Origin: Phycisphaerales bacterium
Lineage (GTDB): Bacteria > Planctomycetota > Phycisphaerae > Phycisphaerales > UBA1924
NCBI GenBank assembly: GCA_016764895.1
Contig: JAESRA010000069.1
Coordinates: forward strand, 1,045-65,044
Direction: 5' to 3'
Length of the DNA: 64,000 nucleotides
Shown: positions 11,449 to 46,512 of the stretch, piece after piece
Numbering within the stretch: position 1 is the stretch's first letter
How the letters are laid out: each line of letters begins with the position of its first letter
Position numbers and translations under genes: made by a program
The notes under the pieces: model-generated
What the model was told of the DNA's origin: nothing
Seen by the model: the letters and a program-made list of their open reading frames with translations, nothing else
The model's database searches: none

Positions 11449-12057
11449 TTATTTTTCATTGGACTTGGGGAGATGGCGACTCAAGAACAGCCCGATATGC
11501 ACAAGTTGTTTGTCATCAGCCGGGCCTGAGTCGTTGCAGAACTCCCAGATTTGATCGATCATTTCATTGAGTTTGGCGAGTTGTTTTTTATCCACCCAAA
11601 CGCTGTGCCCGCCGCAGTGGTGGTTGCGTTGATCGGTGCGTGGGTTGACATCGGGATCGCGGGCGCCGCGTTCATACTTGCGGGCCAGTAAACGGGCGAG
11701 TGCTTTGGCGAAGGTCATGTGGTAGTCGAGGTTTTTGGGGTCGTCTTGATTGAACCGTGTTCCGATCATGCTTGCCAGTGGCCGGTAGAGTTGTTCGTAG
11801 CGTTTGCCGATGAGCCGGGTGTTGGATTCGATGAGCAACCCGCACTCAACGAGTTTCTGGATATGCGGATAAAGCGAGGTACGCGCGCGGGCGAGGAACT
11901 CAGCAATATCTGCGGCCGAGCATTCGCCAAGGGCAGCGGCGGCGTCCAAGACTTCCCATCTGACAGGATTGGCAAGAGCCTGCATGGTGGTGGTGTCTTC
12001 AACAATAAAAAACGGGATGGTTTCGGGTGGTGTTGTGTGTGGTGTTATTGGTGACAT
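11449..12057 (-). CDS. ArsR-family winged-helix transcriptional regulator
   Basis: ALANPVRWEVLDAAAALGECSAADIAEFLARARTSLYPHIQKLVECGLLIE matches the ArsR/SmtB HTH layout (PxR..IL...E.s..ela..lg.s.s..S.HL..L...GLv). The first ATG is at 12057; the ORF track extends to TTG 12081. Confidence 0.6.
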   Translation of the reverse strand: MSPITPHTTPPETIPFFIVEDTTTMQALANPVRWEVLDAAAALGECSAADIAEFLARARTSLYPHIQKLVECGLLIESNTRLIGKRYEQLYRPLASMIGTRFNQDDPKNLDYHMTFAKALARLLARKYERGARDPDVNPRTDQRNHHCGGHSVWVDKKQLAKLNEMIDQIWEFCNDSGPADDKQLVHIGLFLSRHLPKSNEK

Positions 12058-12096
12058 GATGATTTGTGTATTGAATATCAAAAACTAAAATGGTTT

Positions 12097-15516: not shown

Positions 15517-16875
15517 ATGAAGCATCTTTTGTGTACATGTATTCTCGCCGCCGGAGCAGCCAGTGCTCATGGCCAGCTCTCAAGAGTGGTCTACGCCAAC
15601 GGCATCGACCGTCCTGTGTTTATGACCCACGCCGGTGATGACTCAAACCGGATGTTCGTCATCGAGCAAGAAGGTGCGATCCGAATCATTGATGCGGGCG
15701 GCAACCTGCTGCCAGCACCCTTCATCGATATTGACGCGATCGTAGTCGGCGGCAACAGCGGCGGTGACGAGCGAGGCCTCCTCGGTCTCGCGTTCCACCC
15801 AGACTACGCCAACAACGGCAAGTTCTATGTCAACTACACAGGAAGCGGTACAGCCACCCGCATCGCAGAATACCAGGTTTTAGCGGGTGATCCAGACATC
15901 GCCAACCCAGCCACGGCTCGGATCCTGATGACCATCGGCCAACCATTCTCAAACCACAACGGCGGCTGGATGGGATTCGGCCCAGACGGCTTCCTGTACA
16001 TCGCTACAGGTGACGGCGGATCGGGCAACGACCCAGGAAACCGCGCAGCCAATCTCGGCCAACTCCTCGGTAAAATCCTCCGCATCGATGTCGATACTCA
16101 AGACGCCGGGTTGGAGTACGGGATTCCAGCCGGAAACCCATGGGCCGACGATGGCGACCCCGGTACGCGTGCCGAAATTTGGCACTACGGCCTGCGCAAT
16201 CCCTGGCGGACAAGCTTCGACAGTGAAACCGGCGACATGTGGATCGGCGATGTCGGGCAAAATGCACGGGAAGAAGTGAATCACGATATCGGCAATGTCG
16301 GCGGCAAAAACTACGGCTGGCGATGCCGCGAAGGCTTCCAGGCAACCGGGATGGCATGTACCGCCCCCGATCCATGGACCGATCCGGTGCATGATTACCC
16401 ACTATCGGGCGGCAACTGCTCGGTCATCGGCGGGTTTGTCTATCGCGGATGTGAACTTGGTGAAGCCTATCAAGGAAAGTACTTCTTTGGTGATTACTGT
16501 GCCGGTACCATCTGGACTCTTGATCCAGACAACGGCTACGCCTTGTCAACCGAGTTTGACTTTGGCTTTGGTCTCTCCTCATGGGGAACCGACGAAAGCG
16601 GTGAGTTGTACATGGCCAACCTCTTCGGTGGAACAGTGTACAAAATGGTGAATACAAGTGCACCCGATGTGGACGAAAACGGGATTCCAGATGCGTGTGA
16701 ATCCTCGTGCCTGCCCGACATGAACGGCGACGAAACACTCGATTTCTTTGATATTTCAGCATTCCTGACCGCATTTTCAGCCGGAGATCTAAGTGCGGAT
16801 TTTACCGGTGATGGCGCACTCGATTTCTTTGATATCAGCGCATTCTTGACCGCGTTCGCCACTGGCTGCCCATAA
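15517..16875 (+). CDS. PQQ-dependent sugar dehydrogenase (soluble glucose/sorbosone dehydrogenase-type beta-propeller) with C-terminal dockerin-like module (island gene C)
   Basis: Signal peptide MKHLLCTCILAAGAASAHG. ERGLLGLAFHPDY, NHNGGWMGFGPDGFLYIATGDGG, LGKILRIDV, GLRNPWR, GDVGQNAREEVN and NYGWRCREG match the GSDH family. Module at 16708-16872. Confidence 0.9.
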   Translation: MKHLLCTCILAAGAASAHGQLSRVVYANGIDRPVFMTHAGDDSNRMFVIEQEGAIRIIDAGGNLLPAPFIDIDAIVVGGNSGGDERGLLGLAFHPDYANNGKFYVNYTGSGTATRIAEYQVLAGDPDIANPATARILMTIGQPFSNHNGGWMGFGPDGFLYIATGDGGSGNDPGNRAANLGQLLGKILRIDVDTQDAGLEYGIPAGNPWADDGDPGTRAEIWHYGLRNPWRTSFDSETGDMWIGDVGQNAREEVNHDIGNVGGKNYGWRCREGFQATGMACTAPDPWTDPVHDYPLSGGNCSVIGGFVYRGCELGEAYQGKYFFGDYCAGTIWTLDPDNGYALSTEFDFGFGLSSWGTDESGELYMANLFGGTVYKMVNTSAPDVDENGIPDACESSCLPDMNGDETLDFFDISAFLTAFSAGDLSADFTGDGALDFFDISAFLTAFATGCP

Positions 16876-16986
16876 CCAGTTTGTCGTTCCGATTTGCGAA
16901 ATCGCATATGTGAAGATAGAGCATATGTGAAAAAGAGAAGGTTTGGCGAGGTGTCTCGTTGCAGTGTGTCTGCTTTTGAATAGGAC

Positions 16987-17024
16987 GCTTTGCTGCCCGC
17001 TTTGTTGCCCGCTTTGTTGCCCGC
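16987..17024. repeat. 12-bp tandem repeat GCTTTG(C/T)TGCCC x3
   Basis: Three adjacent units at 16987-17022 in the C-D intergenic spacer, followed by the hairpin CCAGATCA-CTAC-TGATCTGG at 17027-17046. Confidence 0.9.
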
Positions 17025-17086
17025 ATCCAGATCACTACTGATCTGGTTGTGGGCGAACTTGCCGAACCTGTCTTTCTAGCCCGCGC

Positions 17087-17130
17087 CAGTGAATCCATGC
17101 CGGTGAACCCATACCGGTGAACCCATACCG
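17087..17130. repeat. 14-bp tandem repeat (C(A/G)GTGAA(T/C)CCAT(G/A)C) x3
   Basis: Units at 17087-17100, 17101-17114 and 17115-17128 (the last two identical). The repeat ends 28 bp upstream of the gene D ATG. Confidence 0.9.
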
Positions 17131-17157
17131 ACGACGCTCAATCAGGGAGTAAGTGAG

Positions 17158-18237
17158 ATGAGAAACATGTTTCAAAAATGTACAGTCAGCATCGGAATAA
17201 CACTGGCAACGCTATCAGGTACCGCCTTTGGAGATGAGTTCGACGGGGTCGTTGATTCCGTCGCATCTACCGCCGCTCTGTCAGGATCGGTAGAGATTCA
17301 CAACAACGGCATCTTGATCGGCGATTTCAACGCCGAGACAAACCCAACAGGCACCAGCACCATCCCAGGGCTCTTCGGCGGATCGGGCAACAACCCGATC
17401 GACATGCAACTCACCGGCGCAGTCAATACCGATCTCAACACCAACCCCACCGGCTCGATGGTACTCGACATCGACTTTGACCTACTCATCATCGACATCG
17501 AGAATCTCACACTCGATCTACTGGGCGGCCAAACCGGCGCAGCCCAGCCGACCGTCTCGATGATCTATGACACCTTCCGCTCCGTCAATCCAACATTTCT
17601 CTACTTCGGAGGGATTCCATTCGAATTCCCCATCGGCGATGCGTCAACCATCGATCAAGCCGTAGCCACGCAGACAGGCCCAGCCGCAGGCGTGCTCGTT
17701 GCATCTGGAAATCCCGATGTCTTCGACTTCACCATCTTGATCCCGGCAGAACTAGCGATCGAACTCACCCTTGGCTTCGGAGATTTCCAACCGCCAGATG
17801 ACGGGCTCGCACCACTCCCAATGGTCTTGCCTCTGACGGGAATTATCCAACGCATGGGCGATGGTTCAGTCCAACTAACCATGACCACCGAGACACAACA
17901 ACTCGAGCAGATCACACCGATTGAAGGCGTCACATCACCAGAGATTCCCTTCGAGCTCCCGACATTTGGAGCCGAAACAGCCGGGGTACTCTTTACGCTC
18001 ACTCCGGATGAACTGGCCGTCGGACTCAGCTACGGCTGGACACTCTTTGTCAATGGCTCGCCTGCGTCCTGTATCCCAGATTTCAATGGCGACGGCGAAC
18101 TCGATTTCTTCGATATCTCCGCATTCCTCACGGCATTCTCAGCCAGCGACCCAGCCGCCGATCTCACCGGCGACGGCGCGTTGGACTTCTTTGACATCAG
18201 CGCATTCTTAACCGCGTTCGCCGCTGGCTGCCCATAA
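17158..18237 (+). CDS. secreted protein of unknown function with C-terminal dockerin-like module (island gene D)
   Basis: GGGAG SD-like motif at 17145-17149. Signal peptide MRNMFQKCTVSIGITLATLSGTAFG. I recognise no catalytic motif. Module at 18070-18234: CIPDFNGDGELDFFDISAFLTAFSASDPAADLTGDGALDFFDISAFLTAFAAGCP. Confidence 0.8.
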   Translation: MRNMFQKCTVSIGITLATLSGTAFGDEFDGVVDSVASTAALSGSVEIHNNGILIGDFNAETNPTGTSTIPGLFGGSGNNPIDMQLTGAVNTDLNTNPTGSMVLDIDFDLLIIDIENLTLDLLGGQTGAAQPTVSMIYDTFRSVNPTFLYFGGIPFEFPIGDASTIDQAVATQTGPAAGVLVASGNPDVFDFTILIPAELAIELTLGFGDFQPPDDGLAPLPMVLPLTGIIQRMGDGSVQLTMTTETQQLEQITPIEGVTSPEIPFELPTFGAETAGVLFTLTPDELAVGLSYGWTLFVNGSPASCIPDFNGDGELDFFDISAFLTAFSASDPAADLTGDGALDFFDISAFLTAFAAGCP

Positions 18238-18272
18238 AGTTATTCCCAATAAAAATTCATAGATCACTCAAT

Positions 18273-18299
18273 CGACCGTTCATGTAACGGTCGGTTTTT
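18273..18299 (+). terminator. Rho-independent terminator after gene D
   Basis: CGACCGTT-CATGT-AACGGTCG stem-loop followed by GTTTTTA. Confidence 0.7.
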
Positions 18300-18431
18300 A
18301 TGTGTTTATTAGGCTGTATGGTCTAAAAACAAGGGATTATCTCCGAGTTTGGTCTTTGGAAAATGAGGTTTGTGTGCTATTCTTGTTATGCTCATAGGGA
18401 GTATTGCTGAGTTGAGTTTTTAGGAGAGAGA

Positions 18432-21400
18432 ATGATGAATCGGAAAGTAAATCTATCGGCATTGGTAATCGTGGCTTTGGCGGGTTCAAGTGCAGGGGCA
18501 CAGGTGATCGATTGGGCATCGGCTGTTGATGGCAACTGGAACGACGCCTTCAACTGGAGCCCGGCGAATGTTCCCAACCTGATTGGCGAGGACGCAGTGC
18601 TTGGGCTGGTCGGGGCGTACACCGTTCATACGATCAATAGCTTTACGATCGGATCGCTGACGCTTTCCAACCCTCTTGTAGTGCTCCAAATCGGGAGCAA
18701 CCAAACACTGATTTTGAACGGCGACCTGAACAACAGCGGAATTGTCAATGTCAATTTCCAAGGGACGATCTTCAATGCACACCTCAGTTTCAACACCGAT
18801 GCGACGATTGCCGGCAACGGATCGATCCTGCTCAATGCGCAGAGTGATCCGGGCGATGCGCAGATTTTGGCAAACGCATTCACCGTGACCAACGCAAGCG
18901 GGCACCTGATTCATGGCTCAGGTCATATCGCCGGCGCGATGATCAACTCAGGAAACATCATCGCCGATGACCCCGCCGGGGCCGGGCTGCGGCTGGGCGG
19001 AACGCTCACGCAGACCCCGGGCGGAAACGCCGGGGCCGATGCGGGGACGCTGTTGCTCGGCAATGGATCCATCACCACCGGCGGCGAACTGCTGTCCATC
19101 AACGGCGGTGTGATCTCGGTTCAAACTTCGGCAACCATCGGGAACATCATCAACTCCGGCGACATCGAAGTACCAGGACAAGGCTGGTCGCTGCGTATGA
19201 ACGGGGATGTCCAGAACAACGGCACCATCACGCTCAACTCAAACGGTGCAATATTCAATGCACATCTCTGGTTTGACGGCGCCACAACACTTGCGGGTTC
19301 GGGCAATGTAATGATGGTCAGCGCCGGCGACTTAGGCGACGCCCAGATTCTCACCAGCGGACTCTTTGATGGCACGATCGGCGGGAATCAAACCGTCGAG
19401 GGCAGCGGGCTCATCACCGGCGGATCCGATGGCACAATCGTCAACCTCGGCACGATCAATGGCAACGATCCGGCTGTGGGGCTGGGGCTTGCCGGGAACC
19501 ACAGCGGGGTCGGCGGCGGCGTATATCGGTCTGACGGCGGATCGATTATTCTCCGCAACGGGCTTGTCCTCAACGGCGGAACCTTTGATTCCTCAGGCAC
19601 CGGCATCGTGGAAATGACAAGCAGCGGCATCGCCACACTCTCCAACATCACCAACCTCGGCCAGATGGGTGTCCGCGGGCAAGGCGGCTCGATCACGCTG
19701 ACTGGGCCAATGACCAACAACGGGACTCTGACACTCAACAGTAATGGGGCAATATTCAATGCTCATCTGCGGTTCGGCGCAAGCACCGCCATTGATGGTT
19801 CGGGCACAATCAACATGGCCACCGCAGGAAGCTCTGGTGATGCACAACTCTTCACAGACGGCCCATTCATCGGCACGATCGGAGCCAGCCAGACCGTACA
19901 AGGATCAGGACAAGTCGATGGACGCAGCGACGGCACCATCGTCAACAACGGCACGATCAACGGCAACGACCCTGCATTCCCACTCGAACTCCGCGGCAAT
20001 CACACCAGCTCCGGCATGTACCGCTCAGATGACGGCGTGCTTGCACTCATCAATGGGGCAAACCTTGACGGCGGCACCTTTGATTCCTCAGGCACCGGCA
20101 TCGTGGAAATGACAAGCAGTGGCATCGTCACACTCTCCAACATCACCAACCTCGGCCAGATGGGTGTCCGCGGCCAGGGCGGGAGCATCAGTCTTGCGGG
20201 GCCGATGACCAATGATGGGACATTGACCATTAACTCGAATAACAATGGGTTCAACGCCCACCTCCGGTTCGTGGCTGATACGGCGATTACTGGATCGGGC
20301 ACTGTCCGAATGAAGATGGCGGGAAGCGATCTTGGTGATGCCCAGCTCTTTACCGATGGCAAGTTCTTCGGTGTGATCGGCGCGAACCAGACAGTCGCGG
20401 GCAGCGGGATTGTGGATGGACGCTCGCTGGGTACGATTGTGAATGATGGAACCATCAACGGCGACGACCCAGTCTTTGAGTTGCGGCTCCAAGGGAACCA
20501 CGACGGGACCGGCGGCGGTGTGTACCGCTCCGACGACGGCCTGCTCGGGTTATCCAACGGGTTGGTCATGAACGGTGGAACCTTTGATTCTTTGGGCACC
20601 GGTATTGTGGACATGACCACCAGCGGCACCGTGATGCTCTCGAACATGACGAACTTCGGAACGCTGGGTATCCGTGGCCAGGGCGGGGTTGTTGGTCTTT
20701 CGGGTCCTCTGACCAATAACGGTACGATTCTCATCAACTCCAATGACAATGGGTTTAATGCTCATATCCGGTTCTTCGCGGCCACCGAGATCAACGGGAC
20801 CGGGACGATCAATATGGAGTTGACGGGGAGCCTTGGTGATGCTCAGATCCTCAATGACCAGGGGTTCATCGGGACCATTGGCAGTGGGCAGACGATAACA
20901 GGTTCTGGAATGATTGTTGGTGAGATGAACATGAACGGGATATTTGATCCGAGTTCAGACGAGCGACGGTTCCATCTGGCCGGTGACACAAACCTCTCGG
21001 CGACCTCTGGGTTCGTTGCCGATCTTGGCGGGTTGCTGATAGGCGAGTTTGACCGGCTGACTATGGGCGTCGGCGACACCATGAATCTTGACGGCACGCT
21101 GACGGTCAATCTTGATGCCGGGTACTTGCCGGAGTTCGGAGATTCATGGGACATCATCTCTGGAGGATCAGTCACCGGCGAGTTCGCCTCTGAGGTTGTC
21201 CCCGAATCCGGGATCGGCCTGGTGTACAGGGTAATCTACGAGCCAAGCCGTGTATTTGTTGTGTTAACCTGCGCAGCGGATCTGACGGGTGACAATGTTC
21301 TCGACTTCTTCGACATCTCGCTGTTCTTAAACTACTTCACCTCAAATGATGTCAGGTCAGATCTCAACGGCGATGGCGTCTTTGACTTCTTTGATATTTC

Positions 21401-21437
21401 ACTGTTCCTTCAGATATTTAACGGGGACTGTTTGTAA
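18432..21437 (+). CDS. large secreted repeat protein (autotransporter-associated beta-strand-repeat-like) with a divergent dockerin-like module (island gene E)
   Basis: Signal peptide MMNRKVNLSALVIVALAGSSAGAQ and an N-terminal GNWNDAFNWSPANVP motif. Five copies of a ~165-aa unit are marked by (I/G)FNAH(L/I)-x-F. The 97-nt segments 19581-19677 and 20076-20172 differ at 2 positions. Terminal module at 21270-21434 is the variant CAADLTGDNVLDFFDISLFLNYFTSNDVRSDLNGDGVFDFFDISLFLQIFNGDCL. Confidence 0.85.
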   Translation: MMNRKVNLSALVIVALAGSSAGAQVIDWASAVDGNWNDAFNWSPANVPNLIGEDAVLGLVGAYTVHTINSFTIGSLTLSNPLVVLQIGSNQTLILNGDLNNSGIVNVNFQGTIFNAHLSFNTDATIAGNGSILLNAQSDPGDAQILANAFTVTNASGHLIHGSGHIAGAMINSGNIIADDPAGAGLRLGGTLTQTPGGNAGADAGTLLLGNGSITTGGELLSINGGVISVQTSATIGNIINSGDIEVPGQGWSLRMNGDVQNNGTITLNSNGAIFNAHLWFDGATTLAGSGNVMMVSAGDLGDAQILTSGLFDGTIGGNQTVEGSGLITGGSDGTIVNLGTINGNDPAVGLGLAGNHSGVGGGVYRSDGGSIILRNGLVLNGGTFDSSGTGIVEMTSSGIATLSNITNLGQMGVRGQGGSITLTGPMTNNGTLTLNSNGAIFNAHLRFGASTAIDGSGTINMATAGSSGDAQLFTDGPFIGTIGASQTVQGSGQVDGRSDGTIVNNGTINGNDPAFPLELRGNHTSSGMYRSDDGVLALINGANLDGGTFDSSGTGIVEMTSSGIVTLSNITNLGQMGVRGQGGSISLAGPMTNDGTLTINSNNNGFNAHLRFVADTAITGSGTVRMKMAGSDLGDAQLFTDGKFFGVIGANQTVAGSGIVDGRSLGTIVNDGTINGDDPVFELRLQGNHDGTGGGVYRSDDGLLGLSNGLVMNGGTFDSLGTGIVDMTTSGTVMLSNMTNFGTLGIRGQGGVVGLSGPLTNNGTILINSNDNGFNAHIRFFAATEINGTGTINMELTGSLGDAQILNDQGFIGTIGSGQTITGSGMIVGEMNMNGIFDPSSDERRFHLAGDTNLSATSGFVADLGGLLIGEFDRLTMGVGDTMNLDGTLTVNLDAGYLPEFGDSWDIISGGSVTGEFASEVVPESGIGLVYRVIYEPSRVFVVLTCAADLTGDNVLDFFDISLFLNYFTSNDVRSDLNGDGVFDFFDISLFLQIFNGDCL

Positions 21438-21521
21438 GCAGAACCGGTCGTTTTGCGTATACTGGATATTTGAAGAGAGTTCAATAAGATTCTCGATACC
21501 AACTTTGTACAGGAGAGAGAA

Positions 21522-22340
21522 ATGAAAGCAATTTGTGTATTGTGCCTAGCCGGCGTTGTGTCAACTGCCTCAGCCCAATCAATGCTGGACTTTACGATCG
21601 ACCCAACTCAGTCCTCGGTTGATCTGACCATCGAGATCGATCTCGGCGGGCTTGGTGGAGATACCGATAGTGATACCTCGTCGCTCTCAGGATTTGTCCA
21701 AGCGGCTCCAGACGATCCCGAAGCCGCCTCTTCTCTCTGGTTGCACGACTTCTTTACTTCAATGGACTCAGACCTGACCTACAACTGGTCGCTCGGATTC
21801 TTATCCACAGCCGACGCGAACTTGGTCGGCGGGACAGTCGAGTACGCAAATCCAGGCATTATTCTCGGCCCAGTACCCGTAGTCGCTGGTGACTTCGAGT
21901 TTCCAAGCGTCTCGGTCATTCTTGGCGGAGTGATGACGGTCAACTACAACATCTTCCTATTCGGTTCAGGGTCCGAGGTTATTGATCTATCAACCCTCGC
22001 CCCATCAGACACGGTCTATTCAGGATCAGTGGTTTCCAGTAATGGCGTGATGACCATGACCAGCACAGTCCCGCTCGCCGGAACTCAGCCATTGGTTATT
22101 GATGGGAGTGTACTCGGAGATGTGATTTTCAGCGGCACCGCGACCATGGTCGCCACCGCAGACATCCCCGATTGCCCCGCAGACTTCACCGGTGATGGCG
22201 TGCTCGACTTCTTTGATATCTCAGCATTCCTCACGGCCTTTGGCAATCAAGAACCCGCCGCCGATATGAACGCTGACGGAGCATGGGATTTCTTTGACAT
22301 CTCAGCATTCCTGACCGCGTTTAGTACCGGATGCCCTTAA
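21522..22340 (+). CDS. secreted protein of unknown function with C-terminal dockerin-like module (island gene F)
   Basis: Signal peptide MKAICVLCLAGVVSTASAQ, a ~200-aa body with no motif I recognise, and the module at 22173-22337. Confidence 0.8.
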   Translation: MKAICVLCLAGVVSTASAQSMLDFTIDPTQSSVDLTIEIDLGGLGGDTDSDTSSLSGFVQAAPDDPEAASSLWLHDFFTSMDSDLTYNWSLGFLSTADANLVGGTVEYANPGIILGPVPVVAGDFEFPSVSVILGGVMTVNYNIFLFGSGSEVIDLSTLAPSDTVYSGSVVSSNGVMTMTSTVPLAGTQPLVIDGSVLGDVIFSGTATMVATADIPDCPADFTGDGVLDFFDISAFLTAFGNQEPAADMNADGAWDFFDISAFLTAFSTGCP

Positions 22341-22534
22341 GAGATATACACATCGTTTATCTTGGGTATCGGACGGAAATAACACGGACAGACCTGACTA
22401 ATCCGACAGGCAAGAATATCCCGTATTTCGGGGCGATTTCTTGCATCCAGTTACTGGTCTGGGGACAATAGTAATGTGGAAAGACCCGATCGGGTCTTAG
22501 AGATGAATGCACGAAACATCCAGGAGGTTGTGCG

Positions 22535-24460
22535 ATGAGAATTCACCGGAGCGGTATCGCCGCATATTTTAAGCGGTCTTGTATGGCAGCAGGGCTGCTG
22601 GCTTTGGCTGGGTCGTCGTCGATCTCGCTGGCGGCACCAGTCCCAACAACGATTGAAGATTTCTTCCTTCCAGGCACCCAACCCGAAACCATCAACCACC
22701 CCATCGCCGACGGCAACAACTGCGCCGCATGCCACTCAGTACCAGAGCATGATTTCGATCCCAACGAAGGATGGGTTGCATCAATGATGGGCCAGTCGAT
22801 GCGCGACCCAATCTTTCACGCCGCCATGTCCGTCGCAAACCAAGATGTCGCCTTTGCCGGCGATCTATGCCTCCGTTGCCACACCCCAGGCGGTTGGCTC
22901 GCCGGACGCGCCGGCAACACAAACCCCGCCGACCCCTTGGATCCCGATGGATCTGATGGCTCGCTGCTCCAGCCAATCGACTTCCAAGGCGTGTCGTGCA
23001 ACTTCTGTCACCGCATGGTCGACCCAGAATACAAACCAGGCGTGAGCCCCATCGCTGACATTGAAGTATTCGACGGCCTCAAAGGCGCAAACCCAGGCAT
23101 CGAAGATACAACACCAAACCCACACTCGGGCGCATTTGTCGTCGACTTCTTCGATCGCCGAAGAGGCCCGTTCGACCTAGGGCCCGACTTCTTTTACCAT
23201 GCCTGGGAACTCTCGCCCTTCCATCGTGACTCAGCCATGTGCGCAACCTGCCATGATGTTTCCAACCCAGCATTCTCCAAACAACCCGACGGAACCTACG
23301 CGCTCAACGCCCTAGGCACTCCCCACGAAACATTCGACAAGTACGACATGTTCCCCATCGAACGCACCTCATCAGAATGGGAACAGAGCGATTTTGCAAT
23401 CGCACCCATCGACATGAGCGGAAGATTCGGCGGCGACAACCCAATGGTTTCAAGCTGTCAAGATTGCCACATGCCAGACCAGAACGCCAACGCCTGCCGT
23501 ATTGATCCAACCAAGCGTCCCGACATGCCACAGCACGCATTCAACGGCGGCAACAACTGGGTCATCAACGCAGTCCGGTCGCTCTACCCAGACCTTGAAA
23601 CAGGTCTCGACGCCACCATGGCCGCCGATTCAATCGCAAGAGCCGAATACATGCTCGTCAACGCCTCTGATCTTGAACTCTCAGAAGACGGCTCAACACT
23701 GACTACGCGGATCATCAACCAAACCGGGCACAAACTCCCCACCGGCTACCCAGAAGGCCGCCGAATGTGGATCAATGTTCAGTTCTTGGACAAGTCAGGA
23801 GTACTCGTCCAAGAGCATGGCGCCTATGACAGCGCAACAGCCATACTCTCGCAAGGCGACACAAAAGTATACGAAGCCCATCTCGGCGTAGACGCAGCGG
23901 TCTCAGCCCTGACCGGAATCCCCGAAGGCGTCGGCTTCCACTTCGCCGCCAACAATGTCTGGATCAAAGACAACCGCATCCCGCCCCGCGGATTCACCAA
24001 CGCCGGGTTCGAATCAGTCCAAGCCGCCCCGGTCGGATACTCCTATATAGATGGTCAATACTGGGACGACACCGATTTCACCATCCCAGCCGGCGCGACC
24101 CAAGCCGAGGTCCGCGTCTACTTCCAACTCGTCAGCAAAGAGTACATCGAGTTCCTCCGCGACGAAAACGACCAAACCGGTGTTGACCCTCTCAACCCAA
24201 GTACCGGCGAGATCGCTTATGCACAATGGGTACTCCACGGCAAGAGCCCCGTCGTCGAAATGGACTTCATGACCATCGACATCATCGGCGGCTGCCCCGC
24301 AGACTTCAACGGCGACGGCGAAGTCGACTTCTTTGATATTTCAGCGTTCCTCAGTGCGTTCTCAAGCCAGCATCCATCGGCAGACATCACCAACGATGCC
24401 CAATGGGATTTCTTCGACATCTCGGCATTCCTGACCATGTTCAGTGCAGGATGTCCATAA
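22535..24460 (+). CDS. multihaem (five CXXCH) c-type cytochrome with C-terminal dockerin-like module (island gene G)
   Basis: AGGAGG at 22522-22527 and a signal peptide. Haem motifs CAACH, CLRCH, CNFCH, CATCH and CQDCH, plus GHKLPTGYPEGRRMW. Module at 24293-24457. Confidence 0.85.
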   Translation: MRIHRSGIAAYFKRSCMAAGLLALAGSSSISLAAPVPTTIEDFFLPGTQPETINHPIADGNNCAACHSVPEHDFDPNEGWVASMMGQSMRDPIFHAAMSVANQDVAFAGDLCLRCHTPGGWLAGRAGNTNPADPLDPDGSDGSLLQPIDFQGVSCNFCHRMVDPEYKPGVSPIADIEVFDGLKGANPGIEDTTPNPHSGAFVVDFFDRRRGPFDLGPDFFYHAWELSPFHRDSAMCATCHDVSNPAFSKQPDGTYALNALGTPHETFDKYDMFPIERTSSEWEQSDFAIAPIDMSGRFGGDNPMVSSCQDCHMPDQNANACRIDPTKRPDMPQHAFNGGNNWVINAVRSLYPDLETGLDATMAADSIARAEYMLVNASDLELSEDGSTLTTRIINQTGHKLPTGYPEGRRMWINVQFLDKSGVLVQEHGAYDSATAILSQGDTKVYEAHLGVDAAVSALTGIPEGVGFHFAANNVWIKDNRIPPRGFTNAGFESVQAAPVGYSYIDGQYWDDTDFTIPAGATQAEVRVYFQLVSKEYIEFLRDENDQTGVDPLNPSTGEIAYAQWVLHGKSPVVEMDFMTIDIIGGCPADFNGDGEVDFFDISAFLSAFSSQHPSADITNDAQWDFFDISAFLTMFSAGCP

Positions 24461-30201: not shown

Positions 30202-32832
30202 TTACGGGCATCCACTACTAAATGCGGATAGGAATGCAGAGATATCAAAGAAATCCCATGCTCCGTCACCATTAAAGTCACTGATTGGGTCATTGGCACC
30301 AAACGCGCTGAGGAATGCGGAAATATCAAAGAAGTCCAACACACCATCGCCGTTGATGTCGGCGGGGCAAGGGTCTGGCTCGTCAATGAAGTCCATCGTC
30401 ACCGCGATATTGTCCACAAACCAGTCATCGTCGGCCTCATCACCCTGAGCCGTCAAACGAAGCTGCAAATCAGCCCCGTAAGCGATAAACGGAAGCTCCA
30501 GTTGATTCAAATCAAACCCGCTCTGATCAACTCCGTCTGAAACAATCGTGGTCAGTTCGGCCCATGTGCCAATAATGTTCTTGTATTCAACAAGCAACGA
30601 CTCGCCAGCTTCAACACCCTTGTGTTGTGTATAGAACTGAACATACACGATCGGCTCCGCGGTGGTCACATCGATTGATTTGGTGGTCATGCTATCGGTG
30701 TTGTCAAGGTTTGCGCTCAGTGTTCCAGAAGGCTCATTGTCGCCAAGGGTGCTGACAGCGGCGTTGCTCGATTCCCAGTTGAAGTTCAGCGATATTCCGG
30801 ATTCAAAGGTATCGATCCATGGAACAGTGTTGCCCTCAAAGAACTTGATCTCGACATCATCAATGAACCAGTTGTCATCGCTCTGGTCGCTTGTTGTCGT
30901 AAACCGCAACCGGAAATCATTATGAATAGCCAGTCCAGGGACTTCAAGCAGGTGGTACGCAAACTCGCTCTGGTCAACGCCGTCCGACGGGATGACCGTG
31001 AGCGGGGTCCAAATCCCGGCGATGTTTGCATATTCGACAACAAGATCCTCACCCGCCTCGGTGCCTGAGTGTTGTGTGTAGAAACTGATCTGTCCCGTTT
31101 GCAAGAAGAACTCCGCAGCCCGGACCATCACCGTATTGATCTGGGCTGTCCCAGAAAGGTTCAATGAATCAGGCCCGCTGGGTTCAGCCAACGCATCCGA
31201 GTTCACAGTCACAGCCCCGCTTAAATCACGCCAAAGCGCCAGTGACGGATCATTGAACAAATCAGCAAACGGAAGCGATACCGCCGAAGGCCCAAAGATC
31301 GCATCCTCGATAGCCCGGCCAACATTAATCCGTCCGTTCCCAGTCTGGTTATCTTCGCCGACCGCCTGCTTGTCGTCACAAGAGTTCAGTAGAATCGCTT
31401 CAACCTCATCAGCACTCAACGCAGGATTGGCAGAGCGAATCAGCATCAACGCCCCAGCAGTAATCGGAGACGAGAAACTGGTGCCCGTGGTGTTTCCGTA
31501 TCCGCCGCCTCTTGTGGTTGTCTGAATATTGGTTCCGGGAGCGATGCAGTCGATCCCAACACCAAAGTTCGAGAACGCCGCATAGTTATCACTTGAGTTT
31601 GATGCACCAACAATGATCACTTTCGCCCAGTCATTTGTTTGATTGCCCACCCCGCTATTACCCGACGAAAAGACAAGTAAGTTCCCCTGTGACCGGATCG
31701 AAATACCGGTCGTGTTGGTCGCGTTATCCTCGGCCCCGCCATACGAACAGTTCGAAACATACGCGCCGTTGTCCGATCCCCACCGAGCGCCTTGGAGAAT
31801 ATCTGACAGAAATGCAGTCCCCCCAGAGTTAATCGAAACCCGGCAAGACATGATCCCAAAGTTCCACCCGACCCCCGATACCCCAACACCATTATTCCCA
31901 ATAGCCGCGGCCGAACCCGCAACCATAGTCCCATGCCCGTTGAGCGTATCATCAACAATCCCGCCATTGGCTTGCGATAAATTAGTCACCGCATTAAACC
32001 CAGAAACAAGCGCGCCCTGCAAATCAGGATGATCCTGGTCAACACCGGTATCACACACCGCGATAATCTCGCCCGACCCCGTCGTAAAGTCCCACGCGCC
32101 GTAGGTGTCGATCCGTGTAGAAGGGTGGTACCACTGAAGGTTTATCCGTGGATCGTTGGGAATCGTTTCAACCGGGTAGCACAACCAATCGATCGAAACA
32201 AACTCATAATCACCCGTCTGCATCAACACCTCGGCCATCGTCTCGGCACTCACCCCAAACGGGAGATGAATCGTGTGCATATCCACATCATCAAACGCCT
32301 CAATCAATGACGGCTCGATCCGCGACCGCGCTTCGACCATTCGGAGTTGGGCTTGTCCAACAAACTCGGCCCCGCCCTGGGCGCCGGCCGCAACTGCTCG
32401 CACCTGTTGTCCGGCGGCCTCTGCCATCGCCAACTCTGTACTCATCTGCTGAAGCATCTGAGATTGTGTCTTAACCTTCACAGTCAGCCGGTTGGTCCGC
32501 TCTTTGAGCCCGATCGTTTCGGTAAAAATTTCGCTTGGCACAATGCTTCCATCAAGCAAACCCGCATCCCGCGTTTCCCAATTGAACGCCTTGGTGATAC
32601 TCCGCTTCTGAGCATTACTCAAGGAAACAGGAGCCGCCGATCCGCTGATCCTCGTCCCATCTACAGCCTTGATGCCAGGATTCAAAAATGAGTCATTGGC
32701 AACCGCACTCCCACTGGCAAGCACAATCGCCAGCCCTGCTGCTACTGCGGTTATTTTCATTGCCTGGCGGAAGTTTGCCTGGCGGAAATTCGCCTGACGG
32801 AAATTTGTTTGGCGGAGTGTCGAATTTTTCAT
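30202..32832 (-). CDS. S8 subtilisin-like serine protease, paralog of gene I, with duplicated jelly-roll-like domains and C-terminal dockerin-like module (island gene J)
   Basis: ATG 32832 is preceded by AAGGAAAGAG; an alternative ATG at 32760 sits directly before the hydrophobic signal core MKITAVAAGLAIVLASGSAVAN. IAVCDTGVDQDHPDL, GHGTMVAGSAAA and GTSFSSPITAGALMLI. Two ~150-aa repeats end DDNWFIDDVEI and DDDWFVDNIAV. Module at 30205-30369. The ORF track extends to 32976 without support. Confidence 0.9.
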   Translation of the reverse strand: MKNSTLRQTNFRQANFRQANFRQAMKITAVAAGLAIVLASGSAVANDSFLNPGIKAVDGTRISGSAAPVSLSNAQKRSITKAFNWETRDAGLLDGSIVPSEIFTETIGLKERTNRLTVKVKTQSQMLQQMSTELAMAEAAGQQVRAVAAGAQGGAEFVGQAQLRMVEARSRIEPSLIEAFDDVDMHTIHLPFGVSAETMAEVLMQTGDYEFVSIDWLCYPVETIPNDPRINLQWYHPSTRIDTYGAWDFTTGSGEIIAVCDTGVDQDHPDLQGALVSGFNAVTNLSQANGGIVDDTLNGHGTMVAGSAAAIGNNGVGVSGVGWNFGIMSCRVSINSGGTAFLSDILQGARWGSDNGAYVSNCSYGGAEDNATNTTGISIRSQGNLLVFSSGNSGVGNQTNDWAKVIIVGASNSSDNYAAFSNFGVGIDCIAPGTNIQTTTRGGGYGNTTGTSFSSPITAGALMLIRSANPALSADEVEAILLNSCDDKQAVGEDNQTGNGRINVGRAIEDAIFGPSAVSLPFADLFNDPSLALWRDLSGAVTVNSDALAEPSGPDSLNLSGTAQINTVMVRAAEFFLQTGQISFYTQHSGTEAGEDLVVEYANIAGIWTPLTVIPSDGVDQSEFAYHLLEVPGLAIHNDFRLRFTTTSDQSDDNWFIDDVEIKFFEGNTVPWIDTFESGISLNFNWESSNAAVSTLGDNEPSGTLSANLDNTDSMTTKSIDVTTAEPIVYVQFYTQHKGVEAGESLLVEYKNIIGTWAELTTIVSDGVDQSGFDLNQLELPFIAYGADLQLRLTAQGDEADDDWFVDNIAVTMDFIDEPDPCPADINGDGVLDFFDISAFLSAFGANDPISDFNGDGAWDFFDISAFLSAFSSGCP

Positions 32833-33265
32833 TTGTTGGTCTCTTTCCTTATTGAGATGGCCAAGCCTGGGGCTCGCTGTATGTCCGATAAAAAGCCGCA
32901 TACGCAATGATGCACTTGCACCCAGAACCAACTGAGCGACCACGCACACAATGCCCGAATTTTGCCCCGAAATCAAGGCAAAAACCCCTTTAGTACCCCA
33001 GAATCACATGATTCAGGCGTACCCGCGAGCATCTCGGACCCTTCCTCCAGAAGAGCCTAAGAGTTCACACCATCAAGGTCTGAGAACCAGTCCTGTTTCT
33101 CGTCCTGTTTTTCGTCTTACTTTTTCAACACTGAATACATCAGTCACCATCATCAGGACCGATAACAGCAAGTGCCACACAAATCCAGCACCGTCCTACT
33201 CTTCGCATCCCAGCACCCGCTGGTTGCAGATATCGGGCGATTCCACCCCATTCAAACCTAAACAA

Positions 33266-36519: not shown

Positions 36520-36591
36520 ATTGGGCAGTCTATGCGTATGGAATTGCCGAGCCGACGAACCCAAGCCGGGTCAGGGCGGTACAGTGTAGAG

Positions 36592-38697
36592 ATGCCACGA
36601 TTATCCCCACTTGTTTTCAATAGCGTTCGTTCACTTCTGGCCTGTACTTTGGCCTGTACCTTGATCGGAGCCTTCGCCAGCCACGCGCTCGGGCAAAGTT
36701 CGCCCACCACCCCGCCCGCCCAAATACCACCCGATCTCCCGGCCCCTACAAATCCAACGAATCCTAAAAAGCAGAAGGTTCAAATGACCTTCGGCCAGAT
36801 ATTCGCCTCAGTAGACACCGCCGAGCCCAACCGTCGCGCCGGGATCCGATCTACGCTCCTGGCCCAAGCCATGCATGTCGCCCCCGTCGTCATCATCGTC
36901 GAAACCCCCTCGGCCTACCTCGACGCCATCAGCCAGTGGGAAGGACCACTCAAGTTCCCAATCCTCTACGACGACGGCACAGACATAAGCCGAGAACACA
37001 TCGCACGCTTTGTGCGAGCCTTCGATCCCAAACAGGTCGTCCGAATCTCCGGCACCGGCACCAGTACATGGGGAAAGAACGCCCAGCAGCGACAAGACGC
37101 CATCAACAAAGCCCTGTCAGCCTCCTTCTTCCAAACAGAATCAGACTGGACAACCATCCTCAAAAAACTCACCGCCACCGGCGTCACCTCGCCCGGCGTA
37201 GTCGTGCTCGATCCAATGGATCATCACTGGGCAGCCGGATTAGCCATGGCCGCCGGTCGTCTCCAACCAATCATCTACCTCAAAGGCCCGCAAAATTCAC
37301 ACAAAGAACTCCAACCCTCCCAAGGGCAGGTCATCAACCAAGCCATCGAACAAGGCCTCCTCCGCCAAGGCCTGTCCTTTGATCAAATCGGCGATCAAAT
37401 CGACGCCATCACCCTCGCATTCCGCGCCCCGACACGAATCAAAACAGGGCCCCAGCCCCGCGACCGCCTAGCACTCACAGATCAGATCGGCCGAGCAGAC
37501 TCCACCATGGGCGGCATGCGCTGGGCATGGTGCGGACAGTTCTTCGGCTCCACTTCAGAAACGGTCTACCAAGCCATGTGCGCCCTGTTCTTACCCATCG
37601 AGAGTGCATTCATATGGGATGGCTACCCAAGCGACGGAGACTGGGCCCGCTATGACGGCACCAAAGCCGAAGCGGCCTTGTCGAAAGCCGGATTCAAAAC
37701 AGAACTCTTCGACGAGCCTCGAAACTCAATGGCGGGTTTTAGAGCACGCAGCGATTCAGGCCCCGTAGACGCATCACTGATCCTGATGAACACCAAAGGC
37801 ACGCCGTACTACTACGACCTCCCCCATTCACCAGATGGGCTCGGAAAACCGGGTGATCTACCAATGCTCGCGCGTCCCAGTGCCCTCCATCTTGTACATT
37901 CGTTTTCGCTCGCTTCTCCACACAGAAAGGACTCGGTGGGGGGGCGATGGCTCCAACGCGGCGTGTACCTCTACGCAGGATCAGTCGACGAACCGTTCCT
38001 CTCAGGATTCGTTCCCACACCACTTGTCGCAGGCAGACTCCTAGCCCAACTCCCCTTCGCCGCCGCAGTCCATTACGACGACGGGCAAGCCTGGAAAATC
38101 GCAGTCATCGGCGATCCACTCAAAACAATCAGCCCCTGCGGCTCGCGCCAAACCTCAATCCCCGACGCAATCAATACATTCATCAAAACCCAAGGCGGCG
38201 AATTACTCAGCACTCGCGCCAAAGACCACCTCAAAGCCGGCCAGTACACCAACGCCATCGAAGACTTTGTCCTCACCAACCGCGACGACGCCGTCGTCCG
38301 GCTCGCCAAAGCACTCATCAACGACAAGCCCGAAGCAATCGACGATCTCGGTGCCAAAATCATCATCCAGGCCGCGATGCGACAGAGCGAGCACGAACTC
38401 GTCCTCGACATCTTCGAGCGGCTCTCCATCGATGCCCAAGCCGATCTAGCGACCCGCGACGCGATGTGGTTCGCCGCCCGCTACCGCGTCTCTCGCTTCG
38501 GCGATGATCGAGCCATGGTTCTGATGCAAAAAAATCTCCGTGCTGGACAAGAAGTCCAAGACGCCGAGCAACTCGCCATGATCCTCAGGCGTAAATCCAT
38601 GTCCCGCGCGATCGGGTTCCTCGAATCGCTCCGCCCAACCCTCAAAGAGAACAAGCGCCCATCACTCGATAAAGCCATCAAGCGCGTCCGCAGATAA
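36592..38697 (+). CDS. secreted hypothetical protein (~700 aa)
   Basis: ATG 36592 gives the signal-like MPRLSPLVFNSVRSLLACTLACTLIGAFASHALGQ followed by a Pro/Thr-rich linker. Coding-like composition throughout. I recognise no family motif. Confidence 0.6.
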   Translation: MPRLSPLVFNSVRSLLACTLACTLIGAFASHALGQSSPTTPPAQIPPDLPAPTNPTNPKKQKVQMTFGQIFASVDTAEPNRRAGIRSTLLAQAMHVAPVVIIVETPSAYLDAISQWEGPLKFPILYDDGTDISREHIARFVRAFDPKQVVRISGTGTSTWGKNAQQRQDAINKALSASFFQTESDWTTILKKLTATGVTSPGVVVLDPMDHHWAAGLAMAAGRLQPIIYLKGPQNSHKELQPSQGQVINQAIEQGLLRQGLSFDQIGDQIDAITLAFRAPTRIKTGPQPRDRLALTDQIGRADSTMGGMRWAWCGQFFGSTSETVYQAMCALFLPIESAFIWDGYPSDGDWARYDGTKAEAALSKAGFKTELFDEPRNSMAGFRARSDSGPVDASLILMNTKGTPYYYDLPHSPDGLGKPGDLPMLARPSALHLVHSFSLASPHRKDSVGGRWLQRGVYLYAGSVDEPFLSGFVPTPLVAGRLLAQLPFAAAVHYDDGQAWKIAVIGDPLKTISPCGSRQTSIPDAINTFIKTQGGELLSTRAKDHLKAGQYTNAIEDFVLTNRDDAVVRLAKALINDKPEAIDDLGAKIIIQAAMRQSEHELVLDIFERLSIDAQADLATRDAMWFAARYRVSRFGDDRAMVLMQKNLRAGQEVQDAEQLAMILRRKSMSRAIGFLESLRPTLKENKRPSLDKAIKRVRR

Positions 38698-44265: not shown

Positions 44266-44301
44266 AAGTTTCGTGTATAGTCATTGAAACGGAGATTATT
44301 A

Positions 44302-46512
44302 ATGTTCAAATTCGCAACCATATGCACTGTCCTATACGCCTCATATTCTGCATTGGCAGGACAATCTTCATATCTCGTATTTCCAGTTCCAGACTTACCA
44401 GCCGAATCAGTTTCGAGTTCGTTGACGGCGGTATTTGACGACGGATTATGTGTAGGTGTGTGGTATGATGCCGATGGAAACGATCATTCATTCGCATGGG
44501 CGCCTGAGGCGACCGACGATTATGCCCAGGGGTATACAGATACCGGTATCTGGTGGGCGCGGGAGATCGGAGACAAGAATATTGATGGGCATTGGGCTCG
44601 CCAGAGTTGGATCTGGTCACCATCGTTGCAAGATTCGGTACCGACGCCGGGATACTGGATCCCAGGGAGCCCGCAAACCGCAATCGGCACACTGGGTGGA
44701 GAATCCGGTGCATCGAGGGCGATTTCAGACACCGACACCTTAATCGGATGGTCGCAAACAGCTGACTTTGATCCAGCGGGCAATCCTGTATCTCACGGTT
44801 TCGTATGGACCGAAGCCGGAGGCATGGCTGCCGTCGAGCCGCTTACGGGGTTTGAACATCTTACCCTCAACGACATTCATCCTGATGAGTTGCTCATAGT
44901 CGGTACGATGTGGAATGCTGAGTTACGCGAGCCAGGATGGATTCCACCGCTCGGCGATGAAATCATCGTGGCAGATTCTGAGGGTATTTATCTCGACAAC
45001 GGAAACCCTGTCTCGATCAATGCCTTGCTTGCGCCAGCATGTCAGTGGGAAATCACAGGTGCCAACTCGGTCAACTCCCAGCAATGGATCGGTGGCTCGG
45101 CCCAAGGAAATGACGGGATGCTCCACGCGGTTCTCCTGATTCCTAACAAAGCGGATGTAGATATGGATGGGCAGATCACCATCCAAGACATCACCATCTA
45201 TCTACAAAACTACGGATCAAACGATCCACTCGCGGATACAAACAATGATGGTCTGATTGACCAGGACGATCTGGTGGAGTTTACAAACGACTTTACAACA
45301 GGGACCTCATCGGGGGTTGCAGGTTCTACACCCATTGGTGGTGGCTCAAATGTTGGCAGGCCTGTCCCAGTAAATTGCTTGCGCCGGATGGCCTCAAACT
45401 CAAACTGTGGCAAAGACTGCGACGGGTGGAACAACGACAATCCGGGCCAGTTCAGCCAAGAATGCAATCCGCACTGCTATGGGTGTTCTGGTGATGATGA
45501 GCACAACATCCACGCTCCAAATGGCGCACCGGGTTGGCCTGGGGATGACCCGAAAAATCCCTATGCCCCCAACGGCGGTCCAGGTGGGGCTGGTGCGGAT
45601 GCTGATGAGGGCTCTGGTGAACCGGGTGGCTATGGTGGTGCTGGTGGCAATGGCGATGAGGGAGGGGATGGCGGTGCTGGTGGCGAAGGTGGAAATGGAG
45701 ATGGATACGGCGACGGCGGCCATGGTGGTGCTGGTGGCAATGGTGGGGGTGGCGGTAATGGTGGCAACGGAGGCGGCGGAGGCGAAACAGATTCCGGGAA
45801 CGGCGGAAACGGCGGCAATGCTGGCAATGGTGGGGACGACGGTAATGGTGGCAACGGAGGCGGTGGAGGCGGTTCCAGTTCTGGGGTTGGTGGTACAGGG
45901 GGAAGCGGCGGTGGGGGCGGCTCCTCGGCAACTGGCGGCAATGGGGGCAGTGGTGGCGATGGAGGAAGTGGCGGGGCTTCCGGTTCTGGTACTGGTGGCA
46001 CTGGTGGACCTGCTGGCCCTGGTGGTGGCGGGGGAGGATCTGGCGATGGTGGCCAAGGTGGTGTTGGTGGTGCTGGAGGATCATCAGATAGCGGCACCGG
46101 TGGGACCGGTGGAACAGGTGGGAGCGCGGGCTCAGGTGGATCGAGTGGCGGGAACGGGGGTGTAGGAGGATCTGGTGGTGCTGGGGGTTCGTCCGGCAGC
46201 GGAAACGGCGGACAAGGGGGGGGCGGCGGCTCAGGTACGACCGGAGGCAGTGGAAATGGATCCAATGGTGGTGCAGGGGGCACCGGCGGAGCATCAACAT
46301 CGGGCACAGGCGGGGATGGTGGCAATGGGGGGTCTGGTGGCGGGGCTACTCCCGGAGGTCAAGGCGGGGACGGCGGTCGTGGTGGAGATGGCGGTTCAGG
46401 TGGTGAGGGTCAAGGCGAAGGCGGGGACGGCGGCCGCGGCGGCAACAGAGGCGGTAATGGTGGGAACGGTGGTAATGGCGATCCTGACGGCAACCCCGGC
46501 CAGGATGACTGA
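44302..46512 (+). CDS. secreted HAF-repeat protein with internal classical dockerin-like EF-hand pair and ~310-codon polyglycine (PGRS-like) C-terminal region
   Basis: ATG 44302 follows ACGGAG; signal peptide MFKFATICTVLYASYSALAG. HAF-like repeats (DHSFAW, SHGFVWTEAGGM, LHAVLLIP). EF-hand pair DVDMDGQITIQD...DTNNDGLIDQDD at 45154-45294. From ~45570 to the end the sequence is GG-x-GG-x repeats (GGAGGNGDEGGDGGAGGEGGNG...). Confidence 0.8.
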   Translation: MFKFATICTVLYASYSALAGQSSYLVFPVPDLPAESVSSSLTAVFDDGLCVGVWYDADGNDHSFAWAPEATDDYAQGYTDTGIWWAREIGDKNIDGHWARQSWIWSPSLQDSVPTPGYWIPGSPQTAIGTLGGESGASRAISDTDTLIGWSQTADFDPAGNPVSHGFVWTEAGGMAAVEPLTGFEHLTLNDIHPDELLIVGTMWNAELREPGWIPPLGDEIIVADSEGIYLDNGNPVSINALLAPACQWEITGANSVNSQQWIGGSAQGNDGMLHAVLLIPNKADVDMDGQITIQDITIYLQNYGSNDPLADTNNDGLIDQDDLVEFTNDFTTGTSSGVAGSTPIGGGSNVGRPVPVNCLRRMASNSNCGKDCDGWNNDNPGQFSQECNPHCYGCSGDDEHNIHAPNGAPGWPGDDPKNPYAPNGGPGGAGADADEGSGEPGGYGGAGGNGDEGGDGGAGGEGGNGDGYGDGGHGGAGGNGGGGGNGGNGGGGGETDSGNGGNGGNAGNGGDDGNGGNGGGGGGSSSGVGGTGGSGGGGGSSATGGNGGSGGDGGSGGASGSGTGGTGGPAGPGGGGGGSGDGGQGGVGGAGGSSDSGTGGTGGTGGSAGSGGSSGGNGGVGGSGGAGGSSGSGNGGQGGGGGSGTTGGSGNGSNGGAGGTGGASTSGTGGDGGNGGSGGGATPGGQGGDGGRGGDGGSGGEGQGEGGDGGRGGNRGGNGGNGGNGDPDGNPGQDD

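Follow-up and report, generated by a model that had tools for sequence, protein, structure and literature searches.

Gene E and its locus

Gene E lies at positions 18432–21437 (+) of a 64,000-nucleotide (nt) stretch of contig JAESRA010000069.1, from the Phycisphaerales bacterium assembly GCA_016764895.1; this whole stretch is referred to here as the window. The open reading frame (ORF) starts with ATG and encodes 1001 amino acids (aa) plus a stop codon, and its product is identical to database protein P0001. Gene E belongs to an island of ten ORFs (12330–32976), each with a C-terminal module of 55 aa of the type C-x2-D-x-[NT]-G-D-G-x2-D-F-F-D-I-S-A-F-L-x-A-F...G-C-P. A consensus scan, the only method applied here, found a terminator-like hairpin at 18270–18296 (+), with an 11-bp stem and a T-rich tail, 3' of the upstream gene. 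The hairpin suggests that gene E has a transcript of its own.

The product starts with a Sec-type signal peptide, which we read by eye from the sequence (aa 1–23, MMNRKVNLSALVIVALAGSSAGA and then QV; 18432–18500 (+)). It is followed by a Trp-rich segment (aa 24–53, IDWASAVDGNWNDAFNW; 18501–18590 (+)) that forms the beginning of the predicted beta-helix, with strands from aa 24 in the model described below; W28, W36 and W42 hardly vary across an alignment of fifty-nine orthologous sequences. Five super-repeat units come next. An all-beta segment that is conserved among orthologues (aa 880–946, GTLTVNLDAGYLPEFGDSWDII...VFVVLT; 21069–21269 (+)) lies between these repeats and the tail, with model strands up to aa 947. 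The tail is a variant GC-type dockerin module at the extreme C-terminus (aa 947–1001; 21270–21434 (+)).

Predicted fold of the body

We modeled the gene E product with AlphaFold2 using the fifty-nine-sequence alignment. The model has a predicted local distance difference test (pLDDT) score of 93.8 and a predicted template modeling score (pTM) of 0.78. Its DSSP string gives short strands without interruption from aa 24 to 947, as in an all-beta solenoid, and each 10-residue block between aa 31 and 920 has a pLDDT of at least 92. Across the same residues the model contains no linker, low-confidence or Pro/Thr-rich segment between units. The signal-peptide region (aa 1–22) has a pLDDT below 50 and a short helix at aa 10–18. 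Units 1 to 4 each carry a long beta-hairpin (aa 143–172, 326–368, 493–526, and 659–691). From the strand pattern we estimate about six to seven rungs per unit, which would give about thirty-five turns in all and a rod of about 17–18 nm.

Searching the Protein Data Bank (PDB) with this model in Foldseek returned beta-helix proteins for all of the top thirty-three matches. The best was CapCBM89 (7jvi_A; E = 9e-4, probability 1.0), and others included Hbp (1wxr), Ag43 (7koh), pertactin (1dab), Hap (3syj), and EtpA (8vbb). PL6 alginate lyases and phage tailspike depolymerases appeared low in the list (E > 2, probability at most 0.04), and no cohesin was among the PDB matches. No Pfam or NCBIfam family matched the body, in the case of Pfam even at E ≤ 10. 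The autotransporter-associated beta-strand repeat family PATR (PF12951) and the autotransporter, two-partner secretion (TPS), cohesin, and pectate-lyase families all gave no Pfam match on gene E, and these readings of the body were dropped. An earlier note on this DNA had likened the N-terminal GNWNDAFNW motif to autotransporter-associated beta-strand repeats, a resemblance that gains no HMM support, as PF12951 has no match at E ≤ 10. The prediction that the body (aa ~24–946) is one continuous right-handed parallel beta-helix is well supported, and this fold is a common one.

The earlier note favored a different picture, in which the five units would be cohesin-like receptors for the GCP-ending dockerins of neighboring proteins and the variant tail would anchor the protein elsewhere; CipA does so in cellulosomes. 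It had proposed a structure prediction as a check, with a single continuous beta-helix as half of the outcome that would speak against a scaffold, and in the AlphaFold2 model the repeats do form one. The hairpins of units 1 to 4 could give a scaffold its periodic surface feature, but the helix runs on without linkers and shows no cohesin fold or HMM signal. Like gene E, CipA-type scaffoldins and the proposed ‘planctosome’ pair repeats with a dockerin-type module at the C-terminus, in the company of dockerin-bearing enzymes that include peptidases. Scaffoldins, however, have cohesins and linkers, whereas the units of E are neither cohesins nor separated by linkers. The alternative offered in the same note, a beta-helical adhesin-type cargo, is the one that the evidence favors.

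Two groups of structural relatives are instructive. Like the autotransporter passengers Hbp, Ag43, pertactin, Hap, and EtpA, gene E combines a long right-handed beta-helix with a signal peptide, putative surface display, and a length driven by repeats. Unlike them, it has no C-terminal beta-barrel translocator as in type Va autotransporters, no TPS domain and no PATR repeats, and a dockerin-like module would anchor it instead. The closest match, CapCBM89 (7JVI), is a non-catalytic xylan-binding beta-helix (PMC8810776) and a precedent for a stand-alone beta-helix that serves as a carbohydrate-binding platform. The likeness is one of fold, with a TM-score of 0.33 on the target and 12 per cent identity. 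CBM89 has fourteen turns compared to the estimated thirty-five or so of E and lacks a 165-aa super-repeat, and the binding residues are not comparable.

Super-repeats and probable gene conversion

The earlier note had described five units of about 165 aa marked by FNAH and GDAQ motifs, and this description is borne out. FNAH occurs at aa 114, 275, 442, 607, and 775, and GDAQ at aa 141, 302, 469, 635, and 802, giving a spacing of 161–168 aa. By unit alignment and a unit hidden Markov model (HMM), unit 1 spans aa 54–214 (18591–19073 (+)), unit 2 aa 215–381 (19074–19574 (+)), unit 3 aa 382–546 (19575–20069 (+)), unit 4 aa 547–714 (20070–20573 (+)), and unit 5 aa 715–879 (20574–21068 (+)). The HMM finds five matches, of which the first and last are partial. 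Unit 1 is divergent (31–36 per cent identity to the other units), as is the last third of unit 5, where the HMM match ends at aa 868. Units 3 and 4 are the most alike (76 per cent protein identity), followed by unit 2 (55 per cent to units 3 and 4) and unit 5 (49 per cent). At the DNA level, direct repeats are spaced 495–504 nt apart. Tandem Repeats Finder reported nothing in gene E, for which the period of about 500 nt is at the program's limit and the copies are about 63 per cent identical.

Units 3 and 4 share a tract of 97 nt (19581–19677 (+) and 20076–20172 (+)) whose two copies differ only at 19625 and 19633, as the earlier note had reported. Given a background identity of 63 per cent, the probability of at least 95 matches out of 97 is about 1e-16. 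Where the two units encode the same amino acid, the codons are identical in 93 per cent of cases within the tract compared to 41 per cent in the rest of units 3 and 4. Near-identical codons together with this low probability point to gene conversion, or else to a partial duplication of very recent date, and not to constraint at the protein level. The tract thus indicates homogenization at the level of DNA, in agreement with the duplication or conversion that the note had suggested.

Near-identical tracts in units 3 and 4 occur at the equivalent gene position in the window (19581–19678 and 20076–20173), in L001 (gene positions ~1141–1370) and in L008 (~1130–1200), two of the related loci that we compared. 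They are not present in L006 or L009. This pattern indicates that conversion within the gene has recurred at a single hotspot in units 3 and 4, in three separate lineages. Across genomes the units group by position, with units 3 and 4 sporadically homogenized within single proteins. The grouping by position implies that the five-unit plan is old.

Homologues and the wider repeat family

We identified 119 homologues of the gene E product, about eighty of them full-length orthologues with 46–73 per cent identity. All of the named homologues come from metagenome-assembled genomes (MAGs) of marine Phycisphaerales. Some orthologues are named ‘GC-type dockerin domain-anchored protein’ or ‘beta strand repeat-containing protein’ by NCBI, and JGI labels them ‘fibronectin-binding autotransporter adhesin’. 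The earlier note had also proposed comparing repeat copy number across related genomes, and the orthologues turn out to carry between three and six units. Five units were found by the unit HMM in most of them, four in several (e.g. P0023, P0030, P0033, P0079), three in P0063 and P0064, and six in P0002. The differences in number are confined to internal units of the unit 3 and unit 4 type.

A profile built from the five units of gene E was searched against 1.84 billion representative sequences. It matched 1,099 proteins at E ≤ 1e-3, of which 677 reach E ≤ 1e-10, and each has two to nine units. In our searches no model of Pfam or NCBIfam matched the super-repeat of about 165 aa, which comprises roughly 1,100 representative clusters and might be given a family of its own.

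Of the 150 best among the 1,099 matches, 143 were newly retrieved, and we classed the C-termini of these by pattern matching. Eighty-eight ended in Cys-terminated dockerin-like modules of very diverse flavor, eighteen in a type IX secretion system (T9SS) or FlgD-Ig-like C-terminal domain, and twelve in PEP-CTERM; the remaining twenty-five were other or truncated. In a sample checked by HMM, the canonical GC-dockerin model scored above its cut-off in P0088, P0093, P0121, and P0132, and PEP-CTERM did so in P0109, P0116, and P0186. The T9SS type A model was above cut-off only in P0114, with P0130 and P0133 falling below it, and P0101 matched Pfam FlgD_ig (40 bits, cut-off 27). Some distant homologues also pass the Pfam dockerin model PF00404, P0088 for example at 25.4 bits. 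The body has thus been combined with at least two HMM-confirmed kinds of sorting or anchoring tail, and probably with a third of T9SS type. A body joined to such different tails behaves as a passenger, which is difficult to reconcile with a scaffold for GC-type modules, as related bodies carry canonical GC, PEP-CTERM, and T9SS-like tails alike. Nor is the body tied to GC-dockerin islands: P0087 and P0093, two of the more distant homologues, are found away from these islands and have no neighboring modules, which again speaks against a scaffold. A locus scan with the gene E protein alone returned two true orthologue loci.

The C-terminal module

The tail of gene E belongs to an already known family, catalogued as NF041540 (GC-type dockerin domain-anchored protein), under which NCBI has already named some of the orthologues. 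NF041540 matches aa 947–1000 at 36.7 bits (E = 4.1e-9, cut-off 29). The neighboring modules score 43.5–49.2 bits, so that E is about 7–12 bits lower. In common with this family of Phycisphaerae and other Planctomycetota, E has a C-terminal module of about 55 aa with two loop-helix elements and a Cys near the C-terminus. It differs by its GDCL end, a signature specific to the orthologues, and the lower score.

In the AlphaFold2 model the module has two helices (aa 959–970 and 986–997). Every ligand position of the two calcium loops is kept (D950/T952/D954/D958/D961 and D977/N979/D981/D985/D988), and the loops, which are EF-hand-like, would be expected to bind Ca2+. C947, D961, D977, D988, and C1000 are invariant among fifty-nine homologues, and a disulfide between C947 and C1000 probably clamps the tail.

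The earlier note had singled out this module as deviating from the other nine of the window, all of which end in GCP. The variant residues stand: SLFL is found in both halves, NYF or QIF replaces TAF, and the protein ends in GDCL. A different architecture is not borne out, as the module is 55 aa long and at the extreme C-terminus like its nine neighbors. The Cys is penultimate in both forms (FNGDCL in E and FGQGCP in the canonical modules), and the change amounts to Gly to Asp before it and Pro to Leu after it. Among E orthologues the terminal motif takes the forms G-x-C-x, GGC.. or ..C. in different sequences.

Comparing seventy-seven modules from E orthologues with fifty-nine canonical ones, we found a consistent signature. 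Position 2 of the module is Asp in place of the canonical Pro, positions 15 and 19 of both helices are bulky (L/V/F/Y/I) in place of Ala, and helix 2 has Gln at position 18 and a further discriminating position at 22. Arg29 is present in 94 per cent of E modules and in none of the canonical ones, and the last residue is variable where 90 per cent of canonical modules have Pro. To judge from these alignments, the tail is correctly described as a consistent variant, and the variant is an old trait shared across the orthologues.

Profiles of the modules match solved dockerins (2y3n_B at 8.9e-5, 5lxv_B at 1e-3, and 2jnk_A at 6e-3). With type I dockerins (PF00404; 2y3n_B, 5lxv_B, 4dh2_D) the GC modules share a duplicated D-x-[DNT]-x-D-x3-D-x2-D loop followed by a helix, as well as lineage variation at positions 10 and 11. 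Type I dockerins lack the Cys bracket and the extreme C-terminal position of the GC modules, and Dockerin_1 (PF00404) on E reaches only 8.2 bits (E = 3.9), below the gathering score of 22.9. The settings also differ: type I dockerins are cellulosomal, whereas the GC modules sit on peptidases and redox enzymes and their cohesin partner is putative. We found no published functional study of GC-type dockerins, and the literature yielded only the ‘planctosome’ paper (PMC6461901).

Genome-specific flavor of the modules

In eight genomes the modules of any one genome share the same flavor at positions 9–14, and the E tail conforms each time. The window has DFFDIS; L001 and L002 have NFFD(V/I)S, L006 has NFLDVS, L008 has D(I/V)FDVF, L009 has NLQDVF, L012 has (D/N)FFDVS, and L013 has DFFDVS. 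Modules in the window are 69 per cent identical as proteins, and about 51 per cent of their conserved residues use the same codon, a figure given without a chance baseline. At this level of codon sharing, the flavor does not appear to be maintained by recent homogenization of DNA. Recent gene conversion among the modules is therefore an unlikely source of the shared flavor, though ancient conversion is possible. The flavor is apparently held by selection from a single co-evolving receptor or sorting machinery.

Positions 10 and 11 of the module would correspond to the classical sites of type I dockerins for cohesin recognition and species specificity. Studies by Pages in 1997 and by Mechaly in 2001 are said to have placed type I dockerin specificity at these two positions. 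The fact that the E tail carries the flavor of its genome argues for the same partner as the other island modules, or a paralogous one, to which the tail would answer as that partner co-evolves. For a scaffold whose tail docks elsewhere, one would look for a flavor of its own, but the E tail has its genome's residues at 10 and 11. The units do not respond to the flavor either. Thirty-four of the 166 unit columns are uniform across units, and none of the thirty-four changes between the FF, FL, and VF/IF flavor groups, which counts against units that receive these modules. On the other side, the variant of the E tail is conserved in orthologues and symmetric in both helices, and the variant positions presumably lie at or beside the cohesin-contact positions of type I dockerins, as a scaffold with a second specificity would have them. 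The E-specific stripe could modify the interface, or it could pack onto the C-terminal beta segment of E itself.

The island and its gene order

The island is chromosomal, lying between dxr, RNase E, ptsI, and rho at one end and, at its other end, trpE, pdxJ, folC, pepA, and nuo genes. Besides E, its GC-dockerin proteins are a 330-aa protein and a 359-aa protein of no known family, a CCP_MauG peroxidase, a pyrroloquinoline quinone (PQQ) dehydrogenase of GSDH type, a protein of 272 aa with a weak lamin-tail-domain (LTD) match in its orthologues, a multihaem cytochrome, and three S8 subtilases. The order GSDH, E, a protein of about 260–272 aa, and multihaem cytochrome (15517–24460 in the window) is conserved among distant Phycisphaerales, in L006, L007, L008, L009, L012, and L013, and every protein of this block bears a GC tail. 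No cohesin-like partner was found in the 64-kb window, where the remaining large ORFs are housekeeping genes except for two (36532–38697 and 44284–46512) that were not examined as partners.

Some features of this setting speak for a scaffold. Gene E is the sole repeat-bearing protein of the island and the sole one with a consistently variant tail, and in all the close genomes that we examined it shares synteny with enzymes bearing GC dockerins. A ‘planctosome’ has also been proposed for freshwater Phycisphaerae (PMC6461901). That proposal is hypothetical and is based on Pfam cohesin and dockerin matches in Nemodlikiaceae (Andrei et al. 2019), and such matches are missing at the gene E locus. 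The numbers do not fit well either, with three to six units per orthologue compared to at least nine dockerin proteins per island.

Proposed function of gene E

The reading that we favor, with a probability of roughly 60 per cent, is that gene E encodes a Sec-exported beta-helix rod carried on a GC-type dockerin, a cargo of a surface-display system with a non-catalytic role in multivalent binding or in spacing. The product would be exported by Sec to what is presumably the cell surface. There the tail would tether the rod to a genome-specific docking partner, or a paralogue of it, to which the island's remaining GC-dockerin proteins would also attach, namely the S8 peptidases, the PQQ sugar dehydrogenase, the cytochrome c peroxidase, and the multihaem cytochrome. 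The rod itself may act as an adhesin or glycan-binding fiber, not as a scaffold that receives other proteins. Each unit would present its FNAH and GDAQ motifs, to which units 1 to 4 would add a long beta-hairpin, and the rod could be lengthened or shortened through unequal recombination and gene conversion between its internal units.

Several observations weigh against this reading. The Foldseek E-values are marginal (best 9e-4) and the TM-scores low, as is usual for long solenoids. A model of the tail alone has a pLDDT of about 90 over the module, but the dockerins that are its top matches are not significant (E 1.4–7.7). The docking partner of GC-type dockerins is putative, and none is found among the Pfam matches of the window. 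The stripe of E-specific residues at positions 15, 18, 19, and 22, together with Arg29, could mean that the tail has a distinct binding site. Finally, the suggested adhesin or binding role is drawn from fold analogy and from the repeated conserved motifs.

The rival that survives best, which we regard as possible but a good deal less probable, is a rod with no ligand of its own that acts as a passive fiber or spacer. Such a rod might contribute to a surface layer or fiber or self-associate in the manner of Ag43, with the tail packed on the C-terminal beta domain. Ag43 and other self-associating autotransporters are indeed among the fold matches, a length polymorphism of three to six units with recurrent conversion is typical of surface fibers, and the bulky hydrophobic residues specific to the E tail could pack intramolecularly. 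Against this, FNAH, GDAQ, and YRSD are conserved in each unit across about eighty orthologues, suggesting a specific interaction surface, and oligomerization is purely hypothetical.

A more elaborate version of the assembly, by analogy with known systems, would make the GC-type dockerins part of a non-cellulosomal, lineage-co-evolving surface assembly of marine Phycisphaerales (a ‘planctosome’) in which the E tail has a second specificity, like that of type II dockerins, and E forms a dedicated structural tier as a primary fiber or adaptor. We consider this rather unlikely.

It is also quite improbable that gene E is a catalytic beta-helix, that is, a polysaccharide lyase, hydrolase or esterase from the pectate-lyase-like superfamily that is displayed at the surface. 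Carbohydrate-active enzymes are numerous among beta-helix proteins, and PL6 lyases and tailspike depolymerases appear in our Foldseek list. The rest of the island consists of enzymes, and every unit has conserved D, H, N, and Q residues. Yet no enzyme family of Pfam or NCBIfam was found on the body, the Foldseek matches to enzymes are at the insignificant end of the list, and the best fold match is explicitly non-catalytic (PMC8810776). A fivefold repetition of motifs in register is the usual picture for structural or binding repeats and not for a lone active site. The scaffold with cohesin-like units fails every test run here, and we consider it very unlikely, by a small margin the least credible of these explanations.

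On the reading that we favor, a rod of binding or spacing function, gene E is an unremarkable beta-helix surface protein, so far without annotation, that opens a view onto a poorly characterized display system. In these uncultured marine Phycisphaerales, peptidases, redox enzymes, and a rod would all be carried on one type of dockerin-like tail. The positions that are uniform within a genome (9–14), with the distinct signature of the E-orthologue tails on top, offer leads toward the putative receptor.

Other features of the window

An antisense ORF of 249 aa (20000–20749 (−)) lies inside gene E. Its translation is rich in Pro, Ser, and Thr, and the ORF most likely arises as a side effect of the sense-strand repeats, which are rich in Gly, Asn, and Thr.

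Within the island, the gene for the 359-aa protein directly upstream of E (17158–18237) has a counterpart of 357–364 aa in L012 and L013 and is absent in L006. An HTH_20 regulator (11449–12081 (−)) is likewise retained nearby in related loci. The sign of the GC skew is positive over the stretch of minus-strand genes (1–13 kb) and negative over the plus-strand stretch from about 14 kb onward; as it tracks the coding strand, with a C-rich sense strand, it does not mark a replication landmark.

Of the two large ORFs mentioned above, the one at 36532–38697 (+) encodes 721 aa with a signal-peptide-like N-terminus and a Pro/Thr-rich linker and matches no Pfam family. The other, at 44284–46512 (+), encodes 742 aa and matches no Pfam family except for a weak EF-hand match. 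The S8 peptidase ORF at 30202–32976 (−) is called from a TTG start and has about eighty residues, including NFRQANFRQANFRQA with its weak Pentapeptide match, before a signal-peptide-like stretch. Its true start is probably further downstream.

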